A DNA stretch of 64,000 nt from Escherichia coli (GTDB taxonomy: Bacteria > Pseudomonadota > Gammaproteobacteria > Enterobacterales > Enterobacteriaceae), in the NCBI RefSeq assembly GCF_048403405.1, contig NZ_CP183129.1; one strand, written 5' to 3'. The notes under the pieces were generated by a model. It was not told where the DNA came from. It ran no database searches and saw only the letters and a program-made list of their open reading frames with translations. Shown here piece by piece: positions 33,498 through 50,024 of this stretch; the stretch's first letter is position 1, and every line of letters begins with the position of its first letter. A program made the translations under genes and the position numbers.

Positions 33498-34918
33498 TAA
33501 TCACCCCATAGTGAAGAAAAGTTACTGCTGGCTGCTGGCTGTGATACCTGCTCAGATTGCGGCAATGTCTGCGACGAAGAAGACGTTCCTCTGTCAACTG
33601 CTGAAATAACCCGCAAAGCATCATAAGCTCGACCAGAAGCAGCTTTCAGCGAATTGAACTGGTTTTCCATCTTCCGGCGCTTGGTATCAATGGTTTTTGT
33701 GGAGTCGCCAGGCTGAGGGAAATACATTTGATAATATTTTGACATTTCAGCAGGTACGATAGCTGCCCCTGTTTCCTGACGGAGTATTGCCATTATTGCG
33801 TCATTAGCATTAACAACGTATTGCTGCTCTGTTGGGCTGAGCGTTAAGTTAGCCAGCGTCCCATTACCCAAAGCATTATTAATGATCGCCACTCGCTGTG
33901 GGCTAAGCTGGTCTTTCAGTGTATCTATTGAATCAAGAGCATCCCTAACCCTGTATGCAAATCCAGCAGCTTTTTTAGCCCCTTCTGGCGACTTTTCCAT
34001 GATCTTTTGGGCTGTTGGCAAAGCTATTGGACGAAACCCATCTCCAGATATTGGCTGGTTTAGTTTTCCCTGCTCTTCACTTCCGTCTGTGTAGTATTTT
34101 GTGACAGTGCCATCATCGTTTTCTCTAACACTCATTAATTTTTTGGCGTTTGTATTAATTCCAGCCGCTGCCGCAAATGCCGCCGCCCCCTCTGGATCCG
34201 CCTTTAACATTTGAGCGTACTGATTGTAATTCTGCATTGCTGCTGTTGGTGCATATGCTGACGTTAACGCATTTGCTCGGCTAATATCCTGCCCTCTCGC
34301 CTGAAGTGCTTCGCCAGCCTGATTGCTGCGGATTGTCTCTGCCAGCCTGCCTCGCTCAATATCCCGACCTTCCATTTGATCTTTGATATTGAAATACTTC
34401 TCATGACCGAGAGAAAACAGTGCCATACTACCAGCAAGCCGCTGGAATCCCTGTGGATCATTAACATGCATTTCGGCAACAGACTCAGGAGAAATTCCCA
34501 AGCGACGCATTTCATCTTCGTTATCTGCTATGAATTTTCCAAATGCCCCAGTTCCGAGCGAAGATGCGATTTGAGCACTAGTCGCAAGATGACCAATAGA
34601 ATTTCTCTGGTCGTCATCAATAAAGCCCATCCCTTTCTGAACGCTTTCAAATTCTTCTGGATACTCAGAAATAAGACTGCGCATTTTGTTTCTGTCTCCA
34701 GACTCAAAAGCCCCGGCATATGCTTTCTGAAACTCTGATTTACGCTGTTGTTGACGTGCCTGCTGATTAATCTCAGCAACGCCTCTTAGCCCCTGTAGCG
34801 CCATTAAACCTACGTTTGGCTGCTGCTGATACTGCACAGGCTGAGGAACGGAAGAACGAGGAGCATTATCATTTTGCGGTGCCATGCTAGGCAGCCCGCC
34901 AAGTTGCCATGTCGTCAT
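33497..34918 (-). CDS. Cargo operon gene 3: hypothetical 473-aa Gln/Ala-rich protein; candidate ejection-protein (P22 gp20-like) homolog
   Basis: Translationally coupled to flanking genes (shared boundary positions 34918 and 33497); no TM segments or catalytic motifs recognised. Confidence 0.6.
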   Translation of the reverse strand: MTTWQLGGLPSMAPQNDNAPRSSVPQPVQYQQQPNVGLMALQGLRGVAEINQQARQQQRKSEFQKAYAGAFESGDRNKMRSLISEYPEEFESVQKGMGFIDDDQRNSIGHLATSAQIASSLGTGAFGKFIADNEDEMRRLGISPESVAEMHVNDPQGFQRLAGSMALFSLGHEKYFNIKDQMEGRDIERGRLAETIRSNQAGEALQARGQDISRANALTSAYAPTAAMQNYNQYAQMLKADPEGAAAFAAAAGINTNAKKLMSVRENDDGTVTKYYTDGSEEQGKLNQPISGDGFRPIALPTAQKIMEKSPEGAKKAAGFAYRVRDALDSIDTLKDQLSPQRVAIINNALGNGTLANLTLSPTEQQYVVNANDAIMAILRQETGAAIVPAEMSKYYQMYFPQPGDSTKTIDTKRRKMENQFNSLKAASGRAYDALRVISAVDRGTSSSSQTLPQSEQVSQPAASSNFSSLWGD

Positions 34919-35595
34919 TAGAATCCAAGCCCCCCAACAAGACCAATAAGCCCACCACCAATAGCCCCGGCGACATTACCTATACCCGGAACAACGGAAC
35001 CAAGTTGCGCACCCGCTAAAGCGCCTGATGCCGCCCCACCAATACCACGCGCAAGACTGGATGGCTGCTGCGCCTGACCTGCACGAATAGCGCCAAGCCC
35101 CTGCAAGAGTTGTCCGGTATTATTGGCGTAGTTTTGCCCTGCTGTTGCCTGCCCTGATGCCGCATTCATCCCGACATTTAGCAGGTTTCCATAATTTTGC
35201 ATTTGCCCACTAAGCCAATTGTTATAAAGCATGGGCGCAATGGAAGATAACTGGTTACTGGTAGCTGTTGAGCCAAGCCCCCCGGTAGCTTCTGCTGAGA
35301 CAAGGTTCTGATAACGGGCCTGATCTGCCTGTGTTTTATATAAACCAGAACCAAAGAAATCATTCGCGGCTTTATTCTGCCCTTCCAGAGTCATCAGTCC
35401 TTGCAGTTGTTGTAAAGCAGGCAATCCGACTTCTGCATACGGCTTGAGATTATTCATCACCGTATTCCACTGCTCGCGCTGCAAATCAATTGCCTGCTGC
35501 TGGGCCTTCGCCTGGGCTTTAGAGGCACCACCATCACCGCCTTTTTCGTATACGGCACGATTGAGATGTTTATGAGCTATATGGGTAATTAACAT
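34918..35595 (-). CDS. Cargo operon gene 2: hypothetical 225-aa protein with C-terminal glycine-zipper segment; candidate ejection-protein (P22 gp7-like) homolog
   Basis: C-terminus GIGGAASGALAGAQLGSVVPGIGNVAGAIGGGLIGLVGGLGF is a glycine-zipper type membrane-inserting motif; Gln/Asn/Ala-rich body; overlaps upstream gene by 7 nt. Confidence 0.6.
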   Translation of the reverse strand: MLITHIAHKHLNRAVYEKGGDGGASKAQAKAQQQAIDLQREQWNTVMNNLKPYAEVGLPALQQLQGLMTLEGQNKAANDFFGSGLYKTQADQARYQNLVSAEATGGLGSTATSNQLSSIAPMLYNNWLSGQMQNYGNLLNVGMNAASGQATAGQNYANNTGQLLQGLGAIRAGQAQQPSSLARGIGGAASGALAGAQLGSVVPGIGNVAGAIGGGLIGLVGGLGF

Positions 35596-36050
35596 TCGCT
35601 GAGTTCCTTATATTGTTGCCGTGTTAACTGATAAAGCGTTACGCCGACGGGTTTACCACATCTGATATATGCATCGGCCAGGTGACCAACACGGGTAGCG
35701 CCAAGCAAACGGATAATTGCCCGTCCGTATTTCGTGGTGTCAGGAACCATGGTGATGCTGTTAAGGAATGGTGAGTTTTCGAGAAGCCATTTGCAGAACA
35801 ATCGATGCCCTTGCAGTGCATATTCACCACGGAATCCGGGGTCGTACACCGCATGGCATTCAACAATGCTATGCCAGAAGTTACGCACTTCATGAACGCC
35901 TGTCAGCACTAATCCTTCGTAGATGCCGAGATATACCGCATCAGGCTTGATGTAGTACGTGTGCCCCGGCTCAACAATATTTTCGGTATTGCCAGGCTCG
36001 TTAAGAAAGGCCTGTAATCGCACCGGGTTATCAATAAATTTTAGTTCCAT
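35589..36050 (-). CDS. Cargo operon gene 1: hypothetical 153-aa soluble protein
   Basis: First gene of the coupled four-gene operon; several conserved-looking His/Cys (HEVRNFWH, ECHAVYDPGF); no family recognised from memory. Confidence 0.55.
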   Translation of the reverse strand: MELKFIDNPVRLQAFLNEPGNTENIVEPGHTYYIKPDAVYLGIYEGLVLTGVHEVRNFWHSIVECHAVYDPGFRGEYALQGHRLFCKWLLENSPFLNSITMVPDTTKYGRAIIRLLGATRVGHLADAYIRCGKPVGVTLYQLTRQQYKELSEC

Positions 36051-36676
36051 GCGGTGCCATCCGTTTTCACATACAGCCTGCCAGCGCCTTATCTATTAAC
36101 CCTCGTGCAATTTCATGCAGAGTTGGCGCTACTCCAATTCCTGATTTTTTACGCTGCTCTTCCTGAATTTTCTTTATCGCTTCCATTTGCTTCTCACTTA
36201 TCAATACCGGCTTTACTGAAATAGCCATAACGCCCCCTTAGAACTGTATAAAACAACAGTTATTATAGTTTCGCAAATCGCAATATTCATCATCGTAATT
36301 GCAAAATATGAAACAAATAGCACAAAAAAATGCCACCGCTCAGTAGCTGGTGGCATCGTTCTGTGTGTCAGGTTTTGACAGGTTTTTTATGGACTCTAAA
36401 AACTATATTTATGGTGTCGCATTACTCTTTACGGCAGGCGCTTTTCAGTTCTGCCCTTGCTTCTGGCTCCATTGGTAATTTGATTCGCGATCAGCTATGC
36501 GGATGGTTTGCTGAACAGGCATAACAACTTCTCAGAGGCTGTTTTTTGAACTACGAAAATTTCGTAGTGCTCACTTTCAAAAACGTCACGCCCTTGTACA
36601 CAGGATTTTACGAAAGTCTCGTAAAACACTCTCTGATGCCAGCCAGGTGTTGTGCGCATCAATTCAGTCACATTGT

Positions 36677-36787
36677 GTTGGTTCAAAATACCGTGTTGTT
36701 GGTTCAGTGTTGGTTCAATAAAAAGAATAAAATCCTTATAAAACAATACTCTTTACAAATTGAACCAACTGAACCAACTGAACCAAC
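36677..36787. repeat. Iteron array 2 (ori-like), inverse arrangement of array 1, immediately downstream of the primase gene
   Basis: GTTGGTTCA at 36677-36685, 36698-36706, 36709-36717; tandem TGAACCAAC at 36761-36769, 36770-36778, 36779-36787; internal spacer CTCTTTACAAA is the inverse of TTTGTAAAGAG in array 1. Confidence 0.8.
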
Positions 36788-36812
36788 ACCTTTTCTACGC
36801 ACATGAAGAAGC

Positions 36813-39572
36813 TCATTCTTCAGATGAGTTATAATCTCCTGGCTGGTAATTGAGTACATAAACGTTTATTTGTCGTCCCTGAATACGTGGTGATTTTCTT
36901 TGGTATCCACGACCGCTGTTTGGTGGGGTTAGCATCCCGGCTTTTTTCAACACTTCAGCAAACTGTTTTGCGTTGAAACCACATGCGATCTCCTTTTCAA
37001 ATGTGGCCGGGAATGTGTAGAAAATCATTGGGCTTTCGTCATGTTCTCCACGCTGACGGTATCCGGCTAAATCTTTGATGGGCAAATCTGCCGGGCTGTA
37101 TGGAAATGGTGCAAAACGGCTAAGCCCATAGGCATTAAGAAATGCCTCCGTTTGTTCAATAATCTGCTGATGCTCTTTGTTACCTGTGCCGAACTCGCGC
37201 AACCATGCGTTATAGCTGTGCTGTATCGCATCACGGCATGTCTGAGCATCCCAGCCTGTTACAACCTCGCCTAACAACAATGCGGCCTCCAGAATGGCAA
37301 ATCGCGCGGCTACACGGTGAACCTGCTCACCATAATCGGGTGGGATCAGGCTTCTCCATCTGCTTTCGCAATCACGAACAGTTTTAATAGCCTGTTGCTG
37401 GTGGTCTGCCAGCCATTTAATCCACTCACGCCCGGCTGCGCCATGGTGATGCTGGTAAGCGTCTTTCAGTGCGTCTGCGTGCTGTTTTCCGTTCTGGTAA
37501 TCGTGAAAGCGTACTGCTTTACTCAACGGAATATTCAGCAGTCGCACCAGTTGCCCGGCTTTGGTTTTTCGCCCGGAAGTAGCGATAAATGTTTCTAAAT
37601 CCATTTCTCCGGTGCTGATTGCCACTGTACGCCAGCGTTTTAGATCCCGGTTTCCACCATCTTTAGCGCCTTGCAGTTTCCCTACACCGTTAAATAACGC
37701 ATAGGCAGACTGTGAAACGCTGACAGGATCAGCGCCCTGACCAACTTCATCAAGCGGCATTAGTCCGTCATTGTGGGCGGCGGCCTCATTTGCCAGCCCC
37801 AGCGCGGTTCCGTACCTCGTCAGCCGCAGTAAATCAGGGTTGCCGTATAAGCTGCTCGCCACGTTTGCCGTGGTGGTCTTACCTGCGCTCGACTGCTCAT
37901 AGAAATGAATGCCGAACCCGTCAGCGCCCACCAGCCCAATCAATGGTGCTGCCAGTGCTGCGCCGATCCCGGTCATCATTGAATAGTTACCAAAGGCCAG
38001 ACGCGCCACGTTATCACGCCAGCTTTGCGCGCTCCCTGAGACGGTATATCCGGCTGCGGCTGAGCTTCTCCCGCTGAACAGCACAGGATTTTCAGGTGTT
38101 CCGATGATTTCCCCATCAGGCATGATGTACGCTCCGCATTGCCAGCCAGTGGCATGAGCAACACGCCACAATTCACGAGAGCCACTGCGTTGTAGCCAGT
38201 CTGCCAGTATTGCTCTGAGGCTGCTTTTGGTCGTGACATTTACCCCACCAGCTTTAAGTGTGCGCCATCCTTCACGTTCACCAATATCAGCCAGTGGAAT
38301 GGCAGCGGTTGTCGGCGTTTCAGAACCAAACGACAGCCAGCGAAGAATGAGATACTGGTCTTTATCGTCTCTGCCAGTACCGATAACGCTTAACGGAGAA
38401 CATAACCAGCTTTCGTTATTGATGATTTCTCCACTCTGGCTGTCAGCTCTCGGAGATACCCAATAAATACCATCCTCGCGGCTTTCTATTCTTGGTTTCA
38501 GTGGGTCGGTATCCATAACCTTAAAATCGCTTCCCTCAATGGTCTGTGGCTCCTGTTTCACGCCATTACCCTGTGGTTGGTACATTGACTTATTGAACGC
38601 TTCTGTGGCGCATTTAATGCCGTGTTTTTGGTGGTAATCATTCCAGTCTGCTTTGTGACCTGTCGGGGGTAATGCCACCCATCCAGAAACAGATAAAGCT
38701 GCTTTTTCTGCTGCTATTCTCCCCGTGTTTTGTCTTCCTTCGCTGTGGTCGTTATCCGCAGCAATGATGATTTGTGCTGAAGGAAATTTATCCCGCAGTA
38801 CCTGGGCGACATATAACAGGTTCCCGGCATCAATCGCCGCCACTGTCAGCGCCTCTGGACGAATTAAATGGGCAGATAATGCCGTTGCTAGCCCTTCTGC
38901 GATTAAGATGCTCTGTGTTGTTTCTGGTGCGTTTATGGCGTGATATGCCCCCCGCTTTGCTGAACCTGTCAGGAGTCTTTTTTCACCATGTGAGGTAATA
39001 GTCTGTGCTGCTGTGACTGCGCCGGATTTATCCACCAGCGCCAGCAACAGAGATCCATCGGGCAACACGGGGAATGTAAAATCACCTACCCCTTTCGCAA
39101 CCAGATAATCAGATTTGCCGTTTACAGCCTTTCTGCGCATGTCATCAAACTGACGGGAAAACGTATCCCGTCTTTGTTGTTCGTCCTTCTCCGCCCTTTT
39201 CAGGCGCTCCTGTTCGCGTTGCTGGCGCTCGGTTTCCAGTTGTTCCCGTTTCTGGCTGGTGGCTTCTGGTGTTTCCGTTGTCCGGTAATCAATACCCAGA
39301 ACATCAGCGGCAAGCAGCGCCGCCTCTGTTGTGTCGCAGTTATTTACGCGTTTAATTAAATCCAGCCCATCACCAGCGCCGCACTGATTACAGATGAAGC
39401 TACCGCGCCCGTTGTCATCGAACCGGAATCGATCTTTGCCCCCACATGCAGGGCAGGGAGCATGACGGCGCGGAGAGTCAGGGACATTTATGTTCAGGCA
39501 GCCCAGCACATGAGGCCAGTTGTTTTCAGACGCACTGATAACCTGACGGATAAGATCAATGTTTCGCATCAC
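36813..39572 (-). CDS. Replication primase-helicase (zinc-finger + TOPRIM + helicase-like domains; P4 alpha / PICI Pri-Rep type), 919 aa
   Basis: N-terminal Cys4 motif CPACGG...CNQCG; TOPRIM-like acidic motifs (LIAEGLATAL..., IIIAADNDHSEG); P-loop-like SSAGKTT in the C-terminal half; followed directly by iteron array 2. Confidence 0.8.
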   Translation of the reverse strand: MMRNIDLIRQVISASENNWPHVLGCLNINVPDSPRRHAPCPACGGKDRFRFDDNGRGSFICNQCGAGDGLDLIKRVNNCDTTEAALLAADVLGIDYRTTETPEATSQKREQLETERQQREQERLKRAEKDEQQRRDTFSRQFDDMRRKAVNGKSDYLVAKGVGDFTFPVLPDGSLLLALVDKSGAVTAAQTITSHGEKRLLTGSAKRGAYHAINAPETTQSILIAEGLATALSAHLIRPEALTVAAIDAGNLLYVAQVLRDKFPSAQIIIAADNDHSEGRQNTGRIAAEKAALSVSGWVALPPTGHKADWNDYHQKHGIKCATEAFNKSMYQPQGNGVKQEPQTIEGSDFKVMDTDPLKPRIESREDGIYWVSPRADSQSGEIINNESWLCSPLSVIGTGRDDKDQYLILRWLSFGSETPTTAAIPLADIGEREGWRTLKAGGVNVTTKSSLRAILADWLQRSGSRELWRVAHATGWQCGAYIMPDGEIIGTPENPVLFSGRSSAAAGYTVSGSAQSWRDNVARLAFGNYSMMTGIGAALAAPLIGLVGADGFGIHFYEQSSAGKTTTANVASSLYGNPDLLRLTRYGTALGLANEAAAHNDGLMPLDEVGQGADPVSVSQSAYALFNGVGKLQGAKDGGNRDLKRWRTVAISTGEMDLETFIATSGRKTKAGQLVRLLNIPLSKAVRFHDYQNGKQHADALKDAYQHHHGAAGREWIKWLADHQQQAIKTVRDCESRWRSLIPPDYGEQVHRVAARFAILEAALLLGEVVTGWDAQTCRDAIQHSYNAWLREFGTGNKEHQQIIEQTEAFLNAYGLSRFAPFPYSPADLPIKDLAGYRQRGEHDESPMIFYTFPATFEKEIACGFNAKQFAEVLKKAGMLTPPNSGRGYQRKSPRIQGRQINVYVLNYQPGDYNSSEE

Positions 39573-39927
39573 CGTACCCCACGTGGTCTATAGCGTTTGC
39601 GATATGGCTAACCAGCATCTGCCACTTGGTTATTCCGTAATCAGTCAGCATGCCATCATTGTTTAGCCACATATCAAATTCAGCGGTTGTCGCAAGTTTC
39701 CACTTATCGCCGTGGACAGTCCTCATTGCTGGGTACATGAATGCGCAAATCAGATCACAAACATCTGACGGCTTCAGAGATGTAGTAATAGTGCGTCCCT
39801 CTGGCGTCTGAATTGCCATTTTCTCTTCACCAGTAGAATGAAGGTTATGAATCCACACAGCACCAGCAATCTTTGCCACCTGCTCTCCGATTGCGGAGCT
39901 AAGCGCCATTTCTGCATTTTCACGCAT
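39556..39927 (-). CDS. Hypothetical protein, 123 aa (element replication/regulatory operon)
   Basis: Overlaps primase start by 17 nt and the upstream ORF by 8 nt (coupled operon). Confidence 0.5.
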   Translation of the reverse strand: MRENAEMALSSAIGEQVAKIAGAVWIHNLHSTGEEKMAIQTPEGRTITTSLKPSDVCDLICAFMYPAMRTVHGDKWKLATTAEFDMWLNNDGMLTDYGITKWQMLVSHIANAIDHVGYGDAKH

Positions 39928-40261
39928 GAGAACCTCCCGCTACAGTTGCGCCCATGTCATTAACCATGCTTTGCCATATCTCACGCCCGACGTCAGTCAA
40001 TCTGTCCTTAGTGACGCAACGATCAAGAAGCTCGATCCCCACGGTTTCCCACTGCGGGTAGAACACTTTCATGGCTGCCAGTGCGTAACTATCGATCAGG
40101 CTGCGAACGCCTTTTACTCCATTGACGATTTCCACACGTACGGCCTCTCCGTCCGCATCAATCATGAAATAGTCCCCGCCGCTGGTGGAGGTAATGTGGT
40201 TATACAGTGCTGACGCATACTTATTTGCCAGCGCATTCAGTCGGAAATTTTTAGTAATCAT
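39920..40261 (-). CDS. Hypothetical protein, 113 aa
   Basis: Co-directional, translationally coupled ORF in the small-gene operon upstream of primase. Confidence 0.5.
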   Translation of the reverse strand: MITKNFRLNALANKYASALYNHITSTSGGDYFMIDADGEAVRVEIVNGVKGVRSLIDSYALAAMKVFYPQWETVGIELLDRCVTKDRLTDVGREIWQSMVNDMGATVAGGSHA

Positions 40262-40271
40262 GGTTCCATCC

Positions 40272-40874
40272 TCAGTGCGTCACTGGTTCCGATGGCATGC
40301 CGTTTTCATTCAGTTCAGCTATAAAGCTGTTGTGAAGTTCAGCAAGCGTTTCACGACCAAATGGAGTCAGTGCTCCTTGTTCCACATCCATCATGGCTCT
40401 GTAGAAAATGATGGAGCGTTCTGTGCCAGACTCGATGCCAAAACGTTCTATCATCGCGCCCTCAATGTTGTTTGCCATAGCGAGGCGCTCTGCTACTGGA
40501 TACAGCGGCATGGCGACGATGCCGTTGGAATAAACAGCCACTTCGGAAGGATTGCCAGTATCATCAATGATGCTGACAGTGCCGTTTTCCTCTCTCATTT
40601 CCAGCATGAATACTGTTGCGATCAACCATCTCCACATAATGACGTTATGCTGTGATGTGTAATCGAAATATCCCTGGTTGCCGCCATCGGCAATAGCGAG
40701 ATGTATTGACATACCTTCATCTGGTTTATCGTCATAATCCCCGGCATCCAGACGATTTACGGCATCAATATATGAGACGGTCTCAACGCGTTCTGTCATG
40801 CCATCGTTGCTGCGGTGCATGATGTTTACGCCGTCAGGCGTTGCTTCTGCCTGGAAAGTTAAGAAATTATTCAT
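40272..40874 (-). CDS. Hypothetical protein, ~200 aa
   Basis: ORF-track ORF 40272-40979 trimmed to the internal Met (MNNFLTFQ...) because the longer reading overlaps the upstream 73-aa ORF; GAGG-type RBS. Confidence 0.45.
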   Translation of the reverse strand: MNNFLTFQAEATPDGVNIMHRSNDGMTERVETVSYIDAVNRLDAGDYDDKPDEGMSIHLAIADGGNQGYFDYTSQHNVIMWRWLIATVFMLEMREENGTVSIIDDTGNPSEVAVYSNGIVAMPLYPVAERLAMANNIEGAMIERFGIESGTERSIIFYRAMMDVEQGALTPFGRETLAELHNSFIAELNENGMPSEPVTH

Positions 40875-41088
40875 GTTTCGCCTCGCCTGAATGATTCTGT
40901 AACTCATATTTGCCCAACAATTCGTCTGCTTCCTGAATAGCTTCTGGTACGCCATTGAGCAGTGACATAACCGCGCCAATCATTAACTTGTCTCTGTTGC
41001 TGGGGCTGGCCCCTTCAAGCCAGAACCCTAAAACAGTCTGAACCTGTTCGATGCGACATTGCGCTTCAATGAGCTGGATGTTGGTCAT
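40867..41088 (-). CDS. Hypothetical small protein, 73 aa
   Basis: Coupled small ORF (overlap ATGA-type with neighbour at 41085-41088). Confidence 0.4.
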   Translation of the reverse strand: MTNIQLIEAQCRIEQVQTVLGFWLEGASPSNRDKLMIGAVMSLLNGVPEAIQEADELLGKYELQNHSGEAKHE

Positions 41089-41348
41089 TTCGCACTCTCC
41101 GCATCGATTAAACTGATATCTATCAGAGAGGTAACTTTTTGTAGCCAGCTAGTGATTACTGTCGCCTGTTCCCCTCCCACCGATGGAAGAATCTCATTCA
41201 TCACATGAACCAGACCTGTGCGCGCTCTGGTAAGCCGTTCAGTCGTGCGATCTGCAAGAGTGAATGTGTCTGGATATGGTTCTTCACGGCTCAGCAATGA
41301 TTCAATTTCCAGCTCACACGGATGACGATAAATTAAGTTGATATTCAT
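41085..41348 (-). CDS. Hypothetical small protein, 87 aa
   Basis: Coupled small ORF in same operon. Confidence 0.4.
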   Translation of the reverse strand: MNINLIYRHPCELEIESLLSREEPYPDTFTLADRTTERLTRARTGLVHVMNEILPSVGGEQATVITSWLQKVTSLIDISLIDAESAK

Positions 41349-41539
41349 TTTTCACCCCCAAGAATTACCAGCTCTGCACGGGCATCGTTAACCAAAGATG
41401 AGCACGCTTTAATCGCATCCACGACATCAGTAGCGTCCATTTCTTCAGCCGAAAGACTGACAGCAACCAGGACAGCCGCTGCTTGCTCGATTAATTGAAG
41501 TGCGGACGTAAGGCGAGGGGTATTAATTGAGTTATTCAT
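41345..41539 (-). CDS. Hypothetical small protein, 64 aa
   Basis: Coupled small ORF in same operon. Confidence 0.4.
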   Translation of the reverse strand: MNNSINTPRLTSALQLIEQAAAVLVAVSLSAEEMDATDVVDAIKACSSLVNDARAELVILGGEK

Positions 41540-42599
41540 TGGTTGCCCCCGTTTTTACTGGCATTTCGCCACCTTCCAGCAGGAAATGAACGTCACGAAC
41601 GGCGAGATCCAATATCGCGAGTAACGCCTTCAGTCTTTCGTCTCGTGAGGGAGAGTTGCTCACCAGAATGTCGTTAATCACTTCTGTCAGTGTGATGATC
41701 TGGCTTGTGCGTTCGAGGGGATCCATATGCACATCGTAGGTTTTAATCATGTGCCACCTCCATGCGGATACGACCAGCAAAAAAGCAGACGTGATCGCGC
41801 ACCAGAGAACGGCGAGCATCGCGTTCAGACTCGGCAGCAATATGATGAATTCTGGCGGTAATTGTCGGGCAATCGCGGCGAACTGCGGCGATAATCCAGA
41901 TAAATTGCGGTTTTTGGGTAGGGGTAGTAGCCAGCATGTGGCAGCCTCCATTCGATAGCATGTAACGCTACCACCGGAAACGCCAATTTCGCTGGTGGTA
42001 GCCCAGACAGGGTTGGCGTAACCGGCTCGAATGGATACCGGCGCTTCCGAAGAAGCCCCTGCCTGAGCCACCATTGATTGACAAAGGCGCTGGATTATAC
42101 ACCAACGCCCAAAAAATGGGTGAGTCAGACCTACGACATAAAAAAAGACGCTCGGCGCGTCATATGTCGCCATTCGATTTACCAGGACGCCAATCCCGGC
42201 ACCCGTTTTATGAGGTGCCTTATAACCATAAACCGTGTTGCCGCATAACGGCAAGCTCTTTTTTATGGACTCCGAAAACTCGCTATTGGAAGCACCAGAT
42301 GCACAGTACATCGCGCTCATTTCGTTAACGTCACGCGCGCGGATGAAGGTTTTTGTGGAGTCACTACGCGAGCGGAAGACATCATCTACGACCAGAAATT
42401 TTCTGGCGCAGCCGCTGACCTTCTCAATGCTAATATCATCGCCCGAGATTTCTGGTATGGTTAAGGCATCCGTTCCGACCACCAGCAAATGATAAACTTT
42501 GCTTGTATCTGCTGTATTAATGCCTGACTTTGCCGTCATATTGCTGGATTTTGGCGACATACCAGCCAGTGAAAATGTCTTCTTCTGGACGGGTATCAT
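41532..42599 (-). CDS. Hypothetical protein, 355 aa (C-terminal half of reading frame is of doubtful coding quality)
   Basis: Start overlaps the stop of the upstream small gene (42596-42599), supporting a real start; C-terminal half is Trp/Cys-rich and may reflect a frameshift or separate small genes. Confidence 0.4.
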
Positions 42600-42772
42600 T
42601 GGTTAACCTCCGCGAACTCCTTCATGAAACGCGCCAGCGGTTGTACGCATGGCGATTGATACCCGTCGCGATAAAACGTCACTCGGTTGTGAGACACGCT
42701 TTCGACAGTAACGAGTGCTCCGTGGGCATCTTTGTAGCGTTTTTGTGGTTGTGGTGTTCCTGTTGGCTTAGA
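42596..42772 (-). CDS. Hypothetical small protein, ~58 aa
   Basis: ORF-track ORF 42596-42862 trimmed to the internal Met (MSKPTGTPQ...) that overlaps the antirepressor-like gene stop by 4 nt. Confidence 0.4.
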   Translation of the reverse strand, partial: SKPTGTPQPQKRYKDAHGALVTVESVSHNRVTFYRDGYQSPCVQPLARFMKEFAEVNQ

Positions 42773-43601
42773 CATTGAGCGCCTCCAGACGCTTGGCGAG
42801 CCAGCGTTGCGACAGGCGGGTGAGTTCTCCTTTGCGCTGCTCATATTCCATGCCCATATCAATTAACGTGATATTGGTGCTTTCGAGATATGAGAGGTGC
42901 TCAAGCTGTTCTGCGTTCATATGGTCGCGAGGTTCGCCAGAATAGCCATTTATCCGCGCCCACTGCTTAGCAGTTAGCCCACCAAGAACGATACGAGAAA
43001 TCATATTGCTCTCGTTTGTGTAGTGGTGTTGCTGCGTCATTTTCCCCATCTCGGCACGGGCCATATTCAGCGCATCGCACATTGGCTTAAAGTTGTTTGC
43101 GGCACTAATACGGGCTTTTAGCTGGCGACGATAGCGGGCGGCGATTTCAGGCACGGTACGCTGTAATTCTTCCTCGCACTGGATGAAATAACGGCGGATA
43201 GCGCGACCCTGATCATTGCGTTCGATCATTGCCAGTTCTTTCGCCATTCCGACACTTAACAGATAGTCTTTGCCGGGTCTGCCAGAGTGCTTTATCTTGC
43301 TGTAAGCCGCGCCATTCGGGCTTTTCCCCAAATTTGGGGAAATTGTTTTATGGACTGAGTAATCGTGCCCAATGGTGAAGTCATATTCAGAGATGCGATC
43401 AGTGATCCATGTAGAGAAGTCTTTTCCCACGCCCAACGCTTTGTGTAACGCTTTTGCGCTAACAATATTGGTTTCACGCCCACCGATATGACCAGGAATA
43501 ACCGGGACAATTGCGGCAAATTCATTACCGTTAATTGTGCCCAGAGAGGCGTTCAGATGAGGGGCGGCCTCAGAAATTAATCTGCTTTTTTCGATGTTCA
43601 T
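42768..43601 (-). CDS. Phage antirepressor-like protein (AntA/KilA-type N-terminal domain), 277 aa
   Basis: N-terminal region ...IVSAKALHKALGVGKDFSTWITDRI... resembles AntA/KilA-N antirepressor domains; C-terminal coiled-coil; typical of satellite/prophage regulatory modules. Confidence 0.55.
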   Translation of the reverse strand: MNIEKSRLISEAAPHLNASLGTINGNEFAAIVPVIPGHIGGRETNIVSAKALHKALGVGKDFSTWITDRISEYDFTIGHDYSVHKTISPNLGKSPNGAAYSKIKHSGRPGKDYLLSVGMAKELAMIERNDQGRAIRRYFIQCEEELQRTVPEIAARYRRQLKARISAANNFKPMCDALNMARAEMGKMTQQHHYTNESNMISRIVLGGLTAKQWARINGYSGEPRDHMNAEQLEHLSYLESTNITLIDMGMEYEQRKGELTRLSQRWLAKRLEALNV

Positions 43602-43613
43602 TTTCAGTCTCCG

Positions 43614-44045
43614 TTAGGCGGCGTTAAACGCGTTCGGGTAGAGTTTCAGAATGTCGGCAATTTCCTGCTGAGAAAGTCCGTTGTGATCATTTATGTTCGC
43701 AAGATGGTTAACATGAGTGATCACTTTCAGAACATCACCACGGCAGGAGAAACGGTAGCGAAGGTGTGTTCCGATACCATCAGGATTCTTTTCGTCGATA
43801 CGCTCCAGAGTGATTCCAAGCTGGCGTTCTAACTCTGTTGCATAGTTACGACCAGAAGACAGACGGCAGTAGCGAAGAATGTCATTTTCTGTCCATCCCT
43901 CTATACCAGTACGCAGCATATAGACTCTGGCACGATGCTTTTTCGGTGTGCGCTTTGGTGCTTGAAGGGATTTTGTCAGGGGCGTAACATCAGATACGCG
44001 AATATCTGAATTAGCCGCCTGTAATGGGCGGTTTTTCTTTTCCAT
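43614..44045 (-). CDS. Hypothetical basic protein, 143 aa
   Basis: Immediately downstream of alpA, start/stop abut (44045); Lys/Arg-rich N-terminus. Confidence 0.5.
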   Translation of the reverse strand: MEKKNRPLQAANSDIRVSDVTPLTKSLQAPKRTPKKHRARVYMLRTGIEGWTENDILRYCRLSSGRNYATELERQLGITLERIDEKNPDGIGTHLRYRFSCRGDVLKVITHVNHLANINDHNGLSQQEIADILKLYPNAFNAA

Positions 44046-44248
44046 CAGGCCACCTTCCCGCGGCGTTCTGCCAGCCAGTTGTGAATCTCAACCGCATCAA
44101 ACGCAGTTATTTTTTCTCCCAGCTTTACCGGACGTGGTAGTGAACCGTTTCTTACTTTACGGTCGATGGTGGATACACTAACGCCCAGCAATTCAGCCAG
44201 GCGGAAGCGTCTGATATAGCCTTTTGTAGGAATAGTGTCGGTGTTCAT
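44045..44248 (-). CDS. alpA: AlpA-family transcriptional regulator (prophage CP4-57-type excisionase-like HTH)
   Basis: 67 aa; MNTDT..IRRFRLAELLGVSVSTIDRKVRNGSLPRPVKLGEKITAFDAVEIHNWL is the canonical AlpA/MerR-like HTH pattern. Confidence 0.85.
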   Translation of the reverse strand: MNTDTIPTKGYIRRFRLAELLGVSVSTIDRKVRNGSLPRPVKLGEKITAFDAVEIHNWLAERRGKVA

Positions 44249-44311
44249 GCTTCCCGTAACCTCTTAGCGATAGTTGTTGCTTCGTTACGGGAGGAAGTAT
44301 CTGTACATATA

Positions 44312-44346
44312 TGAACAATAAAAAGGCACAGTAATGATACTGTGCC
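44312..44346 (-). terminator. Intrinsic terminator after the 321-aa cargo gene
   Basis: Perfect 8-bp stem GGCACAGT/ACTGTGCC with 6-nt loop, followed on the minus strand by TTTTTATTGTT. Confidence 0.6.
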
Positions 44347-44362
44347 TGAATAGTTAGCTACT

Positions 44363-45328
44363 CTACCCCTTACCGTTGGCGGCAGCACGTAAGTGTCTCA
44401 AAATCACATCTTCATTTGTGATTGCTAACGGTGGAATTTCGTCTTTATGAGCCACTATGCAATCCCGCCACTTCTCAGGGCTTATTTCTTTCTTTTTGCC
44501 ACGGCATTCATCAGGATACTTTGACAAAAGATATATTGCAGATTTGAAAAGTTTTTCCCTGTTTTCAGCATGTCTCTCGGCATTATGGTTGCTATTTTTT
44601 ATTTCAGGTATTAGTTCCTGTTCTACCGCCATTTCGTATCGTTTTTTGCTCTTAGCTGCGTCAAAACTTCCATTAACCTTTGCGTCATGAAGGTATTCTA
44701 AATCAGCCTTTGTTATATAAATGTTTTTATCTGACAGGCTACTCAGGTGAATTTGGGAACTTTGCATTTTGAATTTATATAGATCACAATCAAATGTTGC
44801 TTCAAGTCGCACATATGGTTCTCCACATTCTTGTGAATGATAATGTCGTGTTGTTCTACCGCGTACACGCAACAATCCACATGCAATTGATTTTCTTACA
44901 ATAAAAGAGTTTTTGCCAATTTGTTCAAAAACATTTTTATTGTCGCTGTCTTCAACTGTCAGTGGTTTATGTGCATAAAATAGCTCATAAGCACCGCTTT
45001 CAGATGCTGGGATATAAACTTCGTTGCTTGCGCTGGTAATAAGAAAAGGAAATGTAAACCTTACTTCTTCTGGGTACATAAGTAATAAATCAGTTATAAA
45101 ATTAGCATCTTTTTTGAAGTGGATGGTGGCATCAGATTCAATGAAATCAAGAAAGTCAGCATAGACATAAAAGTCTATATGTAGTCTATCTTTCCAATGC
45201 CATATATCATCAATTTCACAATTTAATAATTTTGATGCTCGCTCTATCGTGCAGTAGTCCAAAGGTGGAATACCTGATTCCTGCCATAAATTTCTATGCA
45301 CCACTGTTGTTTCATGAGAGTCGTTCAT
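44363..45328 (-). CDS. Hypothetical AT-rich cargo protein, 321 aa, between integrase and alpA
   Basis: Markedly AT-rich codon usage compared with flanking int and alpA; own terminator; no motif recognised. Confidence 0.6.
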   Translation of the reverse strand: MNDSHETTVVHRNLWQESGIPPLDYCTIERASKLLNCEIDDIWHWKDRLHIDFYVYADFLDFIESDATIHFKKDANFITDLLLMYPEEVRFTFPFLITSASNEVYIPASESGAYELFYAHKPLTVEDSDNKNVFEQIGKNSFIVRKSIACGLLRVRGRTTRHYHSQECGEPYVRLEATFDCDLYKFKMQSSQIHLSSLSDKNIYITKADLEYLHDAKVNGSFDAAKSKKRYEMAVEQELIPEIKNSNHNAERHAENREKLFKSAIYLLSKYPDECRGKKKEISPEKWRDCIVAHKDEIPPLAITNEDVILRHLRAAANGKG

Positions 45329-45423
45329 TGCGTCACCTTTTACGCTGCGCCTTATTTTGTGATTGAGCCAGGCGGTAAGGCTTCCCGCTTTTCGCCCCGT
45401 CGAGCTAGGCTCAATCTATTCAG

Positions 45424-46683
45424 TTAGTTCGCCCTTCTGAGAGGCGTTACGTTGTAGTCTTTTCCGCTTTCCAGTGCCACCAGCAGATCAGCCCACTGTG
45501 CCAGTGCTGCTTTACGCTCATCAAAATACTGATGGCGGTTATAAATCCCCTCTACGCCCTTAATGCGATGATTGAGGCATCGTTCCGCCACGACAGGATC
45601 AACACCCAACGCTGCTAAATGAGTACGTGCGGTGCGTCGGAAGTCGTGAATCGTGAAATTAGGCACATCCGGCATTTCGGCGCGAACCTTAGCCAGTGCT
45701 ACGGGCAAAGTGCTTTCCTGAATATGTGGGATCATTCTGTTTTGCATCTTCCTGGCTGGAAGCACCCATGCGCTATTACATGAAAAGGTGTGTAGCTCTC
45801 TCAACCATTCAACGGCTGGGGAAGGTAGAGGTATATCAATAGGGTCTCCGTTTTTGCTGCGTTCTTCCGGCAAATGCCATACCGCACCATCTAAATCAAA
45901 CTCTTCCCATCGTGCGGCGCATAACTCCATCTTACGAACGCATAGTGCCAGCAATAGCTTAAATGTCAGTTCGTTCTGGCGGCTGAATCCTTTTGCGGTG
46001 CGCATAGCCTCGAATAGCCTGATAAGCTCATCGCGAGTTAGCCAACGGTCGCGGGAAACCTCTTTACCACCAGCATCAGATACTTCAAACGCTGAACAAG
46101 GGTTTATCTCCAGAGCGTGGCGTTTTATCCCGTAGTCAAAGATACGGCGTGTCCAGCGTAATACATCTGTTGCTATCGTTGGTGCTCCTCGGTCAACGAT
46201 ACCTTTCAACATGTCGTCAATGTGGCGTGGCTTAACGTCCTCTACCTTCATATGCCCAATGCAGGGGTTAATATCCTTATCAATTCTCCGGCGAAGGATA
46301 TCGGGATGTTTCCATCTCGGAAGTATCTGGCGCTCGAAGTATTCGGAGGCCAGATCTGAAACACGCATGGCGTTTTTCTCAGCCTCCATTTTTGCCAGTG
46401 CTTCAGCTTTTCGTTCCTGTTTCTCTGCTGCTACGTCATAGCCAAGAGCAACTCTGGCTGACAGCTCTTTTGCTGTTTCTCTGGCTTTTGATAGTGACAG
46501 TTCGGAGTAAGAGCCTATAACCATAGCCCGCTGCTTTCCTGCGAGCTTATAGCGGAATCGCCAGAACGGGGCTGTGTAGTTTTTGGGGTAGCAAATATAA
46601 AGGCCGTTGCCGTCTGCCTTGCCATCAAATCTGTCTCCCGCCTTTATCCATGCGCGGATCTGCATATCTGTGAGTTTTGGCAT
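45424..46683 (-). CDS. Tyrosine recombinase, P4-type integrase, 419 aa
   Basis: From MPKLTDMQIRAWIKAG...GNGLYI (P4-integrase N-terminal arm-binding pattern) to C-terminal catalytic region with ...HDFRRT...LNH..., ending ...GIYNRHQY (tyrosine nucleophile context); adjacent to right-end repeat. Confidence 0.9.
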   Translation of the reverse strand: MPKLTDMQIRAWIKAGDRFDGKADGNGLYICYPKNYTAPFWRFRYKLAGKQRAMVIGSYSELSLSKARETAKELSARVALGYDVAAEKQERKAEALAKMEAEKNAMRVSDLASEYFERQILPRWKHPDILRRRIDKDINPCIGHMKVEDVKPRHIDDMLKGIVDRGAPTIATDVLRWTRRIFDYGIKRHALEINPCSAFEVSDAGGKEVSRDRWLTRDELIRLFEAMRTAKGFSRQNELTFKLLLALCVRKMELCAARWEEFDLDGAVWHLPEERSKNGDPIDIPLPSPAVEWLRELHTFSCNSAWVLPARKMQNRMIPHIQESTLPVALAKVRAEMPDVPNFTIHDFRRTARTHLAALGVDPVVAERCLNHRIKGVEGIYNRHQYFDERKAALAQWADLLVALESGKDYNVTPLRRAN

Positions 46684-46740
46684 TGCGAATACCTGAATAT
46701 CGAATATGGGTGTGTACATAAAGCAATGTACATGAAAGTC

Positions 46741-46764
46741 ATTATGTACACCTCTATGTACACG
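46741..46764. repeat. Right-end direct repeat (putative attR core / integrase-binding repeats)
   Basis: ATTATGTACACCTCTATGTACACG; 22/24 identical to 28810-28833; additional TGTACA motifs at 46711-46740. Confidence 0.55.
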
Positions 46765-46808
46765 CATATTGTGCGCTTTATTGCGTCGTTATGATAGCTC
46801 ATGATAAC

Positions 46809-46846
46809 AAAAAAGCCCGACATTTCGCGGGCTTTGTGGTTTTTTG
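46809..46846 (-). terminator. Intrinsic terminator downstream of yicC
   Basis: GC hairpin AGCCCG...CGGGCT flanked by A-run and T-run on opposite sides (bidirectional-looking). Confidence 0.55.
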
Positions 46847-46871
46847 CTGCTTGGTGATTTTTACTGATAGC

Positions 46872-47735
46872 TTATTCGATATTCTGGATCTGCTCGCGCA
46901 TCTGCTCAATCAACACTTTCAGCTCGATGGCAGAATTCGTCACTTCGGCATTGATAGATTTCGACGCAAGAGTGTTCGACTCGCGGTTGAACTCCTGCAT
47001 CATAAAGTCCAGACGACGACCAACCGCTTCTTTTTTCTTCAGAATGTTGTAGGTCTCTTTGACATGCGCTTCGAGGCGGTCCAGTTCTTCGGCAACGTCA
47101 ATTCGTTGTGCCAGCAGAACCAACTCCTGCTCCAGACGGTTGTTTTCCAGTTGCACCTGAGCATCTTCCAGCTTCGCGACCAGACGCTCACGTTGCCATT
47201 GCAGGATTTCCGGCATATGGGCGCGGACTTTGACCACTTCGGCGGTGACGCCTTCCAGACGCTGCTCGATCAATGCTTTCAGCGCCTGACCTTCGGTTTC
47301 GCGTGCGACGATAAAGTCGTCCAGCGTACCATCCAGCGCCGCGAGAATTTCAGCGGCAATCGCGTCGAGATCCTGCTCCTGGGCTGCCATTACGCCCGGC
47401 CAGCGCAGAATATCAACCGGATTTATTTCCCCTTCGTCGCTCTGCATTTTTACCCAGTTCGCGGCGGTTACCAGCTGTTTAGCCAGTTTTTCGTTGAGGA
47501 TCAGCTCACCTTGTGCGCTAACATCTGGTTCATAGCGCAGGGTACATTCCACTTTACCGCGCGTCAGGCGAGAACGAATACGCTCGCGAACGACAGGTTC
47601 AAGGCTACGGAACTGCTCCGGCAGACGAAAGTAAGTTTCCAGATAACGCTGGTTTACCGAGCGCATTTCCCAGGTTGCGCTCCCCCATTCACCCTTGATT
47701 TCACGCCGGGCGTAGGCGGTCATACTGCGGATCAT
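46872..47735 (-). CDS. yicC: Stress-induced protein YicC (YicC-like family)
   Basis: 287 aa MIRSMTAYARREIKGEWGSATWEMRSVNQRYLE...; conserved neighbour of rph. Confidence 0.9.
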   Translation of the reverse strand: MIRSMTAYARREIKGEWGSATWEMRSVNQRYLETYFRLPEQFRSLEPVVRERIRSRLTRGKVECTLRYEPDVSAQGELILNEKLAKQLVTAANWVKMQSDEGEINPVDILRWPGVMAAQEQDLDAIAAEILAALDGTLDDFIVARETEGQALKALIEQRLEGVTAEVVKVRAHMPEILQWQRERLVAKLEDAQVQLENNRLEQELVLLAQRIDVAEELDRLEAHVKETYNILKKKEAVGRRLDFMMQEFNRESNTLASKSINAEVTNSAIELKVLIEQMREQIQNIE

Positions 47736-47861
47736 AGACGTTCCTGTTTATAAAAGGAGAGGTGGAAGGATTATAGCCATCGATGCCTTGTCAGGATAGG
47801 AATAACCGCCGGAAGTCCGTATAATGCGCAGCCACATTTGTTTCAAGCCGGAGATTTCAAT

Positions 47862-48578
47862 ATGCGTCCAGCAGGCCGTAGCAATAATCAGGTGCGTCCC
47901 GTTACCCTGACTCGTAACTATACAAAACATGCAGAAGGCTCGGTGCTGGTCGAATTTGGCGATACCAAAGTATTGTGTACCGCCTCTATTGAAGAAGGCG
48001 TGCCGCGCTTCCTGAAAGGTCAGGGCCAGGGCTGGATCACCGCAGAGTACGGCATGCTGCCACGTTCTACCCACACCCGTAACGCGCGTGAAGCGGCGAA
48101 AGGTAAGCAGGGTGGACGCACCATGGAAATCCAGCGTCTGATCGCCCGTGCTCTTCGTGCGGCAGTAGATTTGAAAGCGCTGGGTGAGTTCACTATTACG
48201 CTGGACTGCGACGTGCTTCAGGCTGATGGTGGCACGCGTACCGCTTCGATTACGGGTGCCTGCGTGGCGCTGGCAGATGCGCTACAGAAGCTGGTGGAAA
48301 ACGGCAAGCTGAAAACCAACCCGATGAAAGGGATGGTAGCCGCAGTTTCTGTCGGGATTGTGAACGGCGAAGCGGTTTGCGATCTGGAATACGTTGAAGA
48401 CTCTGCCGCTGAAACGGACATGAACGTGGTGATGACTGAAGACGGGCGCATCATTGAAGTGCAGGGGACGGCAGAAGGCGAGCCGTTCACCCATGAAGAG
48501 CTTCTCACCTTGTTGGCGCTGGCCCGAGGGGGAATCGAATCCATTGTAGCGACGCAGAAGGCGGCGCTGGCAAACTGA
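47862..48578 (+). CDS. rph: Ribonuclease PH (full length, 238 aa)
   Basis: [39 protein letters not shown]...; reading frame intact through the C-terminus. Confidence 0.95.
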
Positions 48579-48585
48579 TTTTTAA

Positions 48586-48611
48586 GGCGACTGATGAGTC
48601 GCCTTTTTTTT
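48586..48611 (+). terminator. pyrE attenuator (intrinsic terminator in rph-pyrE intercistronic region)
   Basis: Hairpin GGCGACT-GATG-AGTCGCC followed by eight T residues, ~30 bp upstream of pyrE start. Confidence 0.85.
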
Positions 48612-48643
48612 GTCTGTAGAAAAGTAAGATGAGGAGCGAAGGC

Positions 48644-49285
48644 ATGAAACCATATCAGCGCCAGTTTATTGAATTTGCGCTTAGCAAGCAGGTGTTAAAG
48701 TTTGGCGAGTTTACGCTGAAATCCGGGCGCAAAAGCCCCTATTTCTTCAACGCCGGGCTGTTTAATACCGGGCGCGATCTGGCACTGTTAGGCCGTTTTT
48801 ACGCTGAAGCATTGGTGGATTCCAGCATTGAGTTCGATCTGCTGTTTGGCCCTGCTTACAAAGGGATCCCGATTGCCACCACAACTGCCGTGGCGCTGGC
48901 GGAGCATCATGACCTGGACCTGCCGTACTGCTTTAACCGCAAAGAAGCAAAAGACCACGGTGAAGGCGGCAATCTGGTCGGTAGCGCGTTACAAGGACGC
49001 GTAATGCTGGTGGATGATGTGATCACCGCCGGAACGGCGATTCGCGAGTCGATGGAAATTATTCAGGCCAATGGCGCGACGCTTGCTGGCGTATTGATTT
49101 CGCTCGATCGTCAGGAACGGGGGCGCGGCGAGATTTCGGCAATTCAGGAAGTTGAGCGTGATTACAACTGCAAAGTGATCTCTATCATCACCCTGAAAGA
49201 CCTGATTGCTTACCTGGAAGAGAAGCCGGAAATGGCGGAACATCTGGCGGCGGTTAAGGCCTATCGCGAAGAGTTCGGCGTTTAA
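48644..49285 (+). CDS. pyrE: Orotate phosphoribosyltransferase PyrE
   Basis: 213 aa from [38 protein letters not shown]...; PRPP-binding motif [13 protein letters not shown]. Confidence 0.95.
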
Positions 49286-49292
49286 AGAAACT

Positions 49293-49316
49293 CGCCGGAT
49301 GAAAAGTCATCCGGCG
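49293..49316. terminator. Bidirectional terminator between pyrE and slmA
   Basis: 10-bp stem CGCCGGATGA/TCATCCGGCG with 4-nt loop between convergent genes. Confidence 0.6.
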
Positions 49317-49321
49317 TCATA

Positions 49322-49918
49322 TTACTGCAACTGTGCGGCAATTAGCGGCCAGCGGGCGTCAAAATCATCCGTCGGGCGGTATTTAAACTCGCTGCGGACA
49401 AAGCGTGACAGCATACCTTCACAGAAGGCCAGGATCTGGCTTGCCAGCAGGGTTTCATCGGTGGTGTAACCTTCACCCTCACGCATTCTCTTTTCGCGCA
49501 ATACCTGACGCAACTGCGCTTCAATACGCTCGAACAGCTGGTTGATGCGCCCTTGCAGGCGATCCTGTTCAAACATTAGTGCATGACCAGTGAGGATGCG
49601 GGTCAGGCCAGGATTACGCTCACCAAAACCGAGAAGCAGCAACACAATCAGACGCAGGCGCGCTGTGGTGTCCTTCTCATCTTTCAGAATCAGATTGATG
49701 CGAGTAATCAGGCTATCTTCGATAAACTCAATCAGGCTATCGAACATGCGGGTCTTACTGGGGAAGTGGCGATACAGTGCCGCTTCGGAAACGCCGACAG
49801 AGGCGGCCAGTTTTGCCGTCGTGATACGTTGGCTTCCATCGCTGGATTCCAGCATCAGCGCCAGAGACTGAAGTATTTCCTCGCGACGGTTCCTTTTCGC
49901 AGTTTGTTTTTCTGCCAT
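49322..49918 (-). CDS. slmA: Nucleoid occlusion factor SlmA (TetR family)
   Basis: 198 aa from [24 protein letters not shown]...; TetR-type HTH ([20 protein letters not shown]). Confidence 0.93.
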
Positions 49919-50024
49919 GTTACAAAATACCCCTGAAAATAAGCACTTGCCAGGCGGCACCCACGCTATGACCGCAAACGAAATGTTTGCGGCTATGTTA
50001 TGACGTTATTCGGATGCGTATGTG

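Follow-up and report, generated by a model that had tools for sequence, protein, structure and literature searches.

The inverted repeat immediately upstream of the alpA-like gene in a genomic island of Escherichia coli appears to be a conserved cis-regulatory RNA hairpin at the translation initiation region of alpA, which would place it among known kinds of control. This interpretation is supported by comparison with related loci: the helix covaries, its position relative to the Shine-Dalgarno (SD) sequence and the ATG is fixed, and the length of the loop varies. The initial annotation had proposed either an operator or an RNA structure controlling AlpA translation, and it is the RNA structure that these features support. 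As to function, our leading interpretation, held with slightly less than even confidence, is that of a translational insulator against read-through from the integrase gene (int) or a cargo gene, which would back up the intrinsic terminator at 44324-44347. The repeat is located in an island of ~13 kb between yicC and dinD; coordinates refer to the window, i.e., the whole stretch of 64,000 nucleotides of contig NZ_CP183129.1 that was analyzed (Table 1).

The repeat search identified two perfectly complementary (100%) arms of 9 nt each, 44252-44260 (TCCCGTAAC) and 44284-44292 (GTTACGGGA), which are separated by a spacer of 23 nt; the 8-nt core CCCGTAAC...GTTACGGG spans 44253-44291. The initial annotation had correctly recognized the repeat and its position just upstream of the start of alpA, a minus-strand gene, but its span (44251-44289) was off by 1-3 nt and the arms are 9 nt long rather than 8. 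In the sense of the mRNA, the 5' arm (44292-44284) is followed by the loop (44283-44261), the 3' arm (44260-44252), the trinucleotide AGC, and the ATG (44248-44246). The centroid fold of the leader in the window retains the 9-bp stem (minimum free energy, -16.3 kcal/mol), and the loop is predicted to be mostly unpaired, with only a weak inner helix of 3 bp. The SD-like tract, which had been described as part of the repeat, indeed lies within it, but mostly in the loop: AAGAGG sits at the loop's 3' end, with only the final G paired. An equivalent SD-like purine tract was found in most relatives.

Table 1. Features of the alpA region and of related loci. Positions are those of the window unless a locus is named.
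Feature	Position	Strand	Remarks
143-aa ORF 3' of alpA	43614-44045	-	Its ATG overlaps the alpA stop
alpA-like gene, 67 aa (Phage_AlpA/HTH_17)	44045..44248	-	Pfam PF05930 Phage_AlpA, E 2.2e-8
Hairpin 3' arm GUUACGGGA	44252..44260	-	Fills the SD-AUG spacer; stops 3 nt before the AUG
SD-like AAGAGG	44260..44265	-	~11 nt 5' of the AUG
Hairpin loop GAAGCAACAACUAUCGCUAAGAG, 23 nt	44261..44283	-	C/A-rich; ends with AAGAG
Hairpin 5' arm UCCCGUAAC	44284..44292	-	Repeat search; overlaps the predicted discriminator/start-site region of the alpA promoter
Candidate -10 of the alpA promoter, GATACT	44296..44301	-	Positional -10 signal in relatives; predicted
Weak candidate -35, TTTTTA	44319..44324	-	3/6 match; 17 bp 5' of GATACT; overlaps the T run of the terminator
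Intrinsic terminator after the cargo ORF	44314..44347 (stem 44324-44347 plus T run)	-	10-bp stem AGGCACAGUA/UACUGUGCCU
Variable cargo ORF, 321 aa	44363..45328	-	No family match; same orientation as alpA
int-alpA RNA motif (Rfam RF02996)	45349..45415	-	60.6 bits; ~1.06 kb upstream of the hairpin
Tyrosine integrase ORF	45424..46767	-	Longest-ORF coordinates; co-oriented; island end beside yicC
C4 antisense RNA (C4-like)	41991-42078	-	RF01695, 79.5 bits
IsrK-like RNA	42141-42218	-	RF01394, 67.1 bits
Cargo-slot ORFs of sister islands	L002 3609-4532; L003 3156-4106; L004 3162-4007		281-321 aa
Unrelated alpA leader, K-12 CP4-57	L084 3100-3147		CTCTC...GAGAG
Unrelated leader	L040		ACCTC...GAGGT
Unrelated leader	L046		TTACCTCT...AGAGGTAA
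Unrelated leader, P4 vis	L085 9030-9085		GCTACC...GGTAGC

Taken by itself, the repeat is no more than chance. In the whole window, 34 perfect 9-nt inverted repeats with spacers of 3-40 nt were counted (11.2 +/- 4.6 are expected in first-order Markov random sequences), and the fold z-score of the leader is only -1.8. The significance of the repeat derives entirely from its conservation and covariation at related loci. Among 5,426 complete E. coli genomes, 188 contain the alpA lineage that carries the hairpin, and the lineage also occurs in several other Enterobacterales; more distant alpA relatives were obtained from a genome scan (Enterobacter, Citrobacter, Pantoea, Dryocola, Erwinia, and Tatumella) and from two scans of viral contigs. 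In nearly all of these relatives, the stem ends 0-8 nt before the ATG of alpA, and the same distance was found for the 3' arm in 32 variants. The arms occur in paired variants (CCTG/CAGG, CTCG/CGAG, CCCA/TGGG, CCCC/GGGG, and GTTAC/GTAAC), and when 27 distinct leaders of related islands were aligned with MAFFT, 89.6% of the cells were paired, compared with 27-43% when the partner column is slid. Compensatory changes on both sides are present in five of the nine pairs of this alignment, the covariation score was reached by none of 500 shuffles, and the same helix was independently recovered by RNAalifold.

The helix has been kept with compensatory changes in Escherichia, Enterobacter, Citrobacter, Dryocola, Erwinia, and Tatumella and in the viral contigs. 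In these comparisons, the identity of the third codon positions of alpA is only 0.50-0.62, which is near saturation, and the upstream DNA (~0.25) is unalignable, whereas the hairpin region has retained an identity of 0.67-0.80 together with its complementarity. It is this compensatory conservation across genera and viral contigs, despite near-saturated third codon positions, that makes it very improbable that the repeat has no function and is merely a palindrome that arose by chance or a scar left by recombination at a mosaic junction, even though chance alone would produce repeats of such a size, the fold z-score is low, and a mosaic boundary lies exactly at the edge of the repeat.

A covariance model built from the alignment yielded one match per alpA locus of this lineage but did not match the leader of alpA in CP4-57 of strain K-12, which shows only a weak complementarity (CTCTC...GAGAG). 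Several unrelated alpA and vis leaders possess an anti-SD-like tract right after a -10-like hexamer, with short complementarity to the SD region (Table 1). Their stems could reflect a convergent layout; they are short and could also be due to chance. A search of Rfam release 15 against positions 30000-50000 (E <= 1) gave no match at 44246-44300, including the int-alpA motif (RF02996) and the c4-a1b1 motif (RF03163), and no description of this alpA leader hairpin was found in the literature searched.

The geometry of the variants favors pairing in RNA over recognition of DNA. The arm cores of the variants are 13, 16, 19, 20, 22, 23, or 24 nt apart, which does not agree with the fixed half-site spacing of an operator whose arms would serve as half-sites for a dimeric protein (AlpA or a repressor) over the start site of alpA. 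Moreover, the arms differ by paired changes (CCCG, CCTG, CTCG/CGAG) among loci whose AlpA helix-turn-helix is identical (the window, L035, L036, L037, and L042). The varying length of the loop and the changes in the arms at a constant helix-turn-helix argue for RNA pairing and against an operator. The same is true for variants that lack the outer pairs, where the stem grows inward and CUUC pairs with the GGAG of the SD sequence; since outer pairs were lost and inner pairs were gained, it is the stability of the stem rather than its sequence that is conserved. The position of the repeat follows the ATG, and one-sided changes are mostly compatible with G.U pairing in the sense of the mRNA (eight G.U versus three C.A), although this asymmetry is modest.

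Outside of the repeat, the island contains no further copy of the half-site CCCGTAAC; copies with one mismatch (34985, 35254, and 45698) are isolated single 8-mers and not arranged as repeats. The operator reading of the initial annotation is thus disfavored, and we rate it as improbable, although a perfect palindrome overlaps the predicted -6 to +3 region, AlpA is known to autoregulate (PMC6092414), and symmetric operators are likewise expected to show compensatory changes. The strand opposite to the alpA leader (44215-44300, plus strand) folds more stably than the leader itself (-24.5 versus -16.3 kcal/mol), forming an 11-bp stem with G.U pairs and an inner stem; neither an antisense promoter nor a gene was evident.

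When the upstream sequences of the relatives were aligned on the stem, a promoter signal emerged at its outer edge. Hexamers that resemble a -10 element (TTTAAT, TTAAAT, CATGAT, AATCAT, TCTAAT, TAAACT, and others) end 0-4 nt before the first base of the stem, and at one offset their average agreement with TATAAT rises to a sharp peak (3.26 versus ~1.9). The signal persisted with one representative for each of 23 unrelated upstream clusters: the mean match was 3.35 at the single offset (versus 1.96 +/- 0.30; maximum 2.61) and 4.13 for the best match in five offsets (versus 3.21 +/- 0.20). Six variants combine ATGAC(A/T), a non-conserved spacer of exactly 17 bp, and CATGAT, AATCAT, or GATTAT ending 0-3 nt before the stem; such an arrangement, in which the hexamers are conserved and the spacer keeps its length but not its sequence, is typical of genuine sigma-70 promoters. 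The candidate promoter of the window (TTTTTA-17-GATACT) is weak, with 7 of 12 matching positions, and was not listed by the promoter scan; its counterpart in sister island L003 is TTTTCA-17-TAGATT. Such weakness is as expected for a promoter that needs AlpA or a helper factor.

Because the -10-like hexamer adjoins the 5' arm, the transcripts from alpA's own promoter probably start within the arm and would lack the hairpin. Within G-U-A-A-C, either the first A or the G is the predicted +1, which corresponds to a position near 44286-44289 in the window. In the literature searched, no paper assigns a start site to alpA of PICIs, and the supplementary data of an E. coli end-mapping study do not include alpA. 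Several relatives (L041, L037, L071, L031, L055, and L046) have a near-perfect dyad, TTCGCACCGAAAA-N-TTTTCGGTGCGA, directly adjoining their ATGAC(A/T) -35 element; the dyad is centered near -50, lies ~35-70 nt 5' of the hairpin, and is a candidate target of AlpA or of an activator encoded by the helper. In the window, the terminator hairpin is found where sister islands have the dyad.

The insulator model combines what was observed (the repeat, its conserved and covarying helix, the fixed position of this helix relative to SD and AUG, the positional -10 signal, and, further upstream, the terminator and genes in the same orientation) with an inferred start site of alpA, a presumed read-through RNA, and a presumed effect on translation. 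Transcripts entering from upstream (from int, from the cargo ORF, or by leakage of the terminator) would hold both arms, fold, and stay untranslated, whereas those from the alpA promoter would begin inside the 5' arm, carry an unstructured, C/A-rich leader of 38 nt, and be translated. In the folded form, the 3' arm would take up the stretch between SD and AUG, and in some relatives the SD sequence itself would be covered, so that the 30S subunit could not dock and neither AlpA nor the product of the coupled downstream ORF would be made. Only the terminator separates alpA from the co-oriented int gene, int-alpA RNA, and cargo ORF, and the hairpin would form a second layer of insulation behind it. 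By blocking the translation of stray transcripts, the hairpin would protect the switch and keep a positively autoregulated master activator safe from stray transcription. Overexpression of AlpA has been reported to cause uncontrolled replication of the island and to impair growth and viability (PMC6092414).

The stem is computed to be stable enough to compete with binding of the 30S subunit. Opening of the region from -18 to +13 has a calculated cost of 16.4 kcal/mol in the read-through RNA of the window but only 5.7 kcal/mol in an RNA starting at the predicted +1 (means over 31 variants, 14.9 versus 7.1 kcal/mol), a gap that follows by construction because the 5' arm is truncated. Several points run counter to the insulator model. 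The SD sequence of the window lies mostly in the loop and is not paired, the assignment of the promoter is based on consensus matches, which are weak in the window, and both the higher stability of the complementary strand and the modest excess of G.U over C.A have to be considered. In the subgroup with CUUC/GGAG pairing (e.g., L062), an SD-sequestering stem of 6 bp remains even in the RNA from the predicted +1 (difference, -0.3 kcal/mol), and damping of the native mRNA may therefore also occur.

This subgroup leads to the close rival of the insulator model, a constitutive leader hairpin. If transcription started upstream of the 5' arm, every alpA mRNA would carry the stem and translation would always be lowered; such a damper would set the threshold of the positive-feedback loop of AlpA, in the manner of the small hairpin at the ribosome-binding site (RBS) of sigG or the leader of IS200 tnpA (PMC4513863, PMC5942855). 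All structural evidence for the helix applies equally to this reading, the promoter match of the window is weak, and the stem of the CUUC/GGAG subgroup, which pairs the SD sequence, persists even from the predicted +1. However, a -10-like hexamer lies 0-4 nt from the stem in 23 unrelated contexts, with a clear -35 element at 17 bp in six variants, and this position puts the +1 inside the 5' arm; in addition, the 22 nt between the T run of the terminator and the stem leave little room for a promoter that starts upstream. We consider a constitutive damper a plausible but less probable alternative. The core that it has in common with the insulator model, namely an RNA hairpin that occludes the initiation of alpA translation, is supported by the comparative data.

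A third possibility is that the stem is opened or closed by a trans-acting factor, such as a protein of the helper phage or the island, Hfq, or a small RNA, and that this is the step that induces the island. The loop is not random: all aligned leaders share the dinucleotide CA at columns 24-25, the closest relatives have conserved GAAGCAACAAC, and CTATC recurs in others. It also contains an (ARN)3-like tract (AGCAACAAC), which we presume would suit the distal face of Hfq. Binding of Hfq to the RBS regions of the IS10 and IS200 mRNAs has been described (PMC4513863). By contrast, the 3' half and the length of the loop vary freely, and the loop and its complement occur nowhere else in the window than at the locus itself, with 11-mer complements at chance frequency. 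The C4-like and IsrK-like RNAs of the island show no special complementarity to the leader, which ranked 1221st and 377th, respectively, among 1751 windows in a crude duplex scan of the operon, and the leader was rejected as a target of these RNAs. A terminator or attenuator was also rejected: the stem is followed by AAGCAUG without a U run and is absent from the terminator scan.

Induction of Gram-negative PICIs is reported to act at the transcription of alpA and to require a helper phage and autoactivation by AlpA (PMC6092414, PMC11773190). Since helper-dependent induction is reported to be transcriptional, the hairpin is better seen as an insulator or damper than as a sensor; together with the -10-like hexamer adjoining the 5' arm, this leaves the "induction switch" of the initial annotation unsupported. 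It is unlikely, if slightly less so than an operator, that the hairpin with its C/A-rich loop is a receptor whose stem is melted or locked by a helper-phage or host factor (a protein, Hfq, or a small RNA), and both the trans-factor switch and the DNA operator are less likely than an insulator or a constitutive damper. If the receptor reading were true, the induction of these satellites would gain a translational checkpoint beside the known transcriptional one, and RNA would be at least one of the targets of the "inducer" that helpers supply to Gram-negative PICIs.

The gene layout of the island matches that of a Gram-negative PICI-like element, with co-oriented int, alpA, and a P4-family primase and a Bro/ant zone with immunity RNAs. 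The minus strand also encodes an AntA/B gene in addition to the primase, and the layout fits the scheme of integration, Bro, and replication zones described for Gram-negative PICIs (PMC10111431). Directly downstream of alpA, the sequence TGATG (44043-44047, minus strand) shares bases between the alpA stop and the ATG of the 143-aa ORF. This overlap suggests translational coupling of the two genes, and control of alpA translation would therefore probably carry on to the next gene; coupling has been reported for vis-eta of P4 (PMC10111431). The integrase CDS in RefSeq is shorter (1,260 nt) than the longest ORF. A search for direct repeats at the attachment sites of the island found none at seed 11. 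A gene for tRNA-Sec (selC), a classic integration site of islands, is located at 10098-10192 (minus strand), ~34 kb from the hairpin.

The C4-like and IsrK-like RNAs fall inside a CDS annotated in RefSeq as "Icd-like" (~41532-42362), which is probably over-extended. The pair looks like an RNA immunity module of the P1/P4 type, and sister island L002 also has a match to the c4-a1b1 target. Two pairs of 22-nt direct repeats (33692-33713/42348-42369 and 36383-36404/42259-42280; 86-91% identical) tie the zone just upstream of the IsrK-like RNA to remote parts of the island and may represent repeated targets or sequences related to the immunity RNAs.

The ORF between int and alpA appears to occupy a swappable cargo slot. 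In three sister islands inserted at this chromosomal site, the cargo ORFs are unrelated and the upstream DNA cannot be aligned, and one of the three has a diverged N-terminus of alpA; nevertheless, all three retain a 40-nt block that coincides with the repeat, with unrelated flanks. At least in L004, there is no detectable DNA homology to the cargo ORF of the window past the edge of the hairpin, and in some E. coli genomes, BLAST homology stops exactly at the outer edge of the stem or covers the repeat alone. One recombination boundary falls right at the outer end of the hairpin (44291/44292). The cargo ORFs of the window and the sister islands had no match in Pfam and PHROGs, and PADLOC gave a single marginal match (PDC-S31, E 0.002) for the ORF of the window, which is a possible source of read-through transcripts into alpA. 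The stem of the terminator that follows it shows compensatory changes in L003. The int-alpA RNA motif immediately follows int and precedes the cargo ORF. In all 12 related loci, ~0.9-1.1 kb separate it from alpA downstream, which implies that it flanks the variable cargo slot and not alpA itself.

Although the int-alpA motif shares the island, the strand, and the interval between int and alpA with the hairpin, it is a distinct element ~0.9-1.1 kb upstream and does not overlap with it in sequence or structure. The proposed logic is known from two transposable elements and from the leader of sigG. Davis, Simons and Kleckner are said to have described in 1985 a fold-back inhibition of externally initiated transposase transcripts in IS10/Tn10, where the 3' half of an inverted repeat reportedly covers the translation start and transcription from the promoter of the element itself begins between or inside the halves, so that only read-through RNA folds and stays untranslated. 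The alpA hairpin resembles this arrangement in the location of the 3' half over the translation start and in the shielding of a mobile element from outside transcription. The sequences are unrelated, however, and whereas IS10 protects a transposase, the gene in question here is the activator/excisionase of a PICI-like island; a counterpart of the antisense RNA-OUT was not seen, and the alpA start is a predicted one. A passage of PMC13181058 cites IS10 for sequestered translation signals (Davis et al. 1985).

The left end of IS200 carries a bidirectional terminator and an SD-sequestering stem-loop in the 5'UTR of tnpA (PMC4513863). Like the alpA region, it has two layers, an intrinsic terminator against impinging transcription and a second inverted repeat at the RBS, but the stem-loop of IS200 is inside the native 5'UTR and pairs the SD sequence directly, and the antisense RNA art200 and Hfq add further control. 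In alpA, the SD sequence lies largely in the loop, the 3' arm blocks the spacer between SD and AUG, and no antisense RNA is known. In Bacillus subtilis, a large hairpin that is present only in transcripts reading through from the upstream operon blocks the translation of sigG, and a small RBS hairpin also damps the native mRNA (PMC5942855). As in the case of alpA, the gene encodes a positively autoregulated master regulator; the differences are in the organism, the involvement of sigma factors, the sequence, and the length of the stem (at least 20 bp in sigG versus 9 bp here).

The island shares the order of int, alpA, the Bro/ant zone with immunity RNAs, and the P4-type primase with the Gram-negative PICIs EcCICFT073 and EcCIMP1, in which AlpA is an autoactivated master activator (PMC6092414, PMC11773190). 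The studies of these PICIs were based on promoter fusions and make no mention of a hairpin in the leader (PMC6092414, PMC11773190). The hairpin of the present lineage, which is absent from Rfam, is a candidate for a new family of cis-regulatory RNAs, and its motif marks the point at which cargo modules and promoter modules are swapped. For this one alpA lineage, a hairpin around the promoter and RBS of alpA, placed behind a terminator, offers a testable answer to the question of what keeps such islands quiet, given that no repressor is known: the feedback loop of AlpA may be insulated from the transcription of the adjacent, freely swapped cargo gene.
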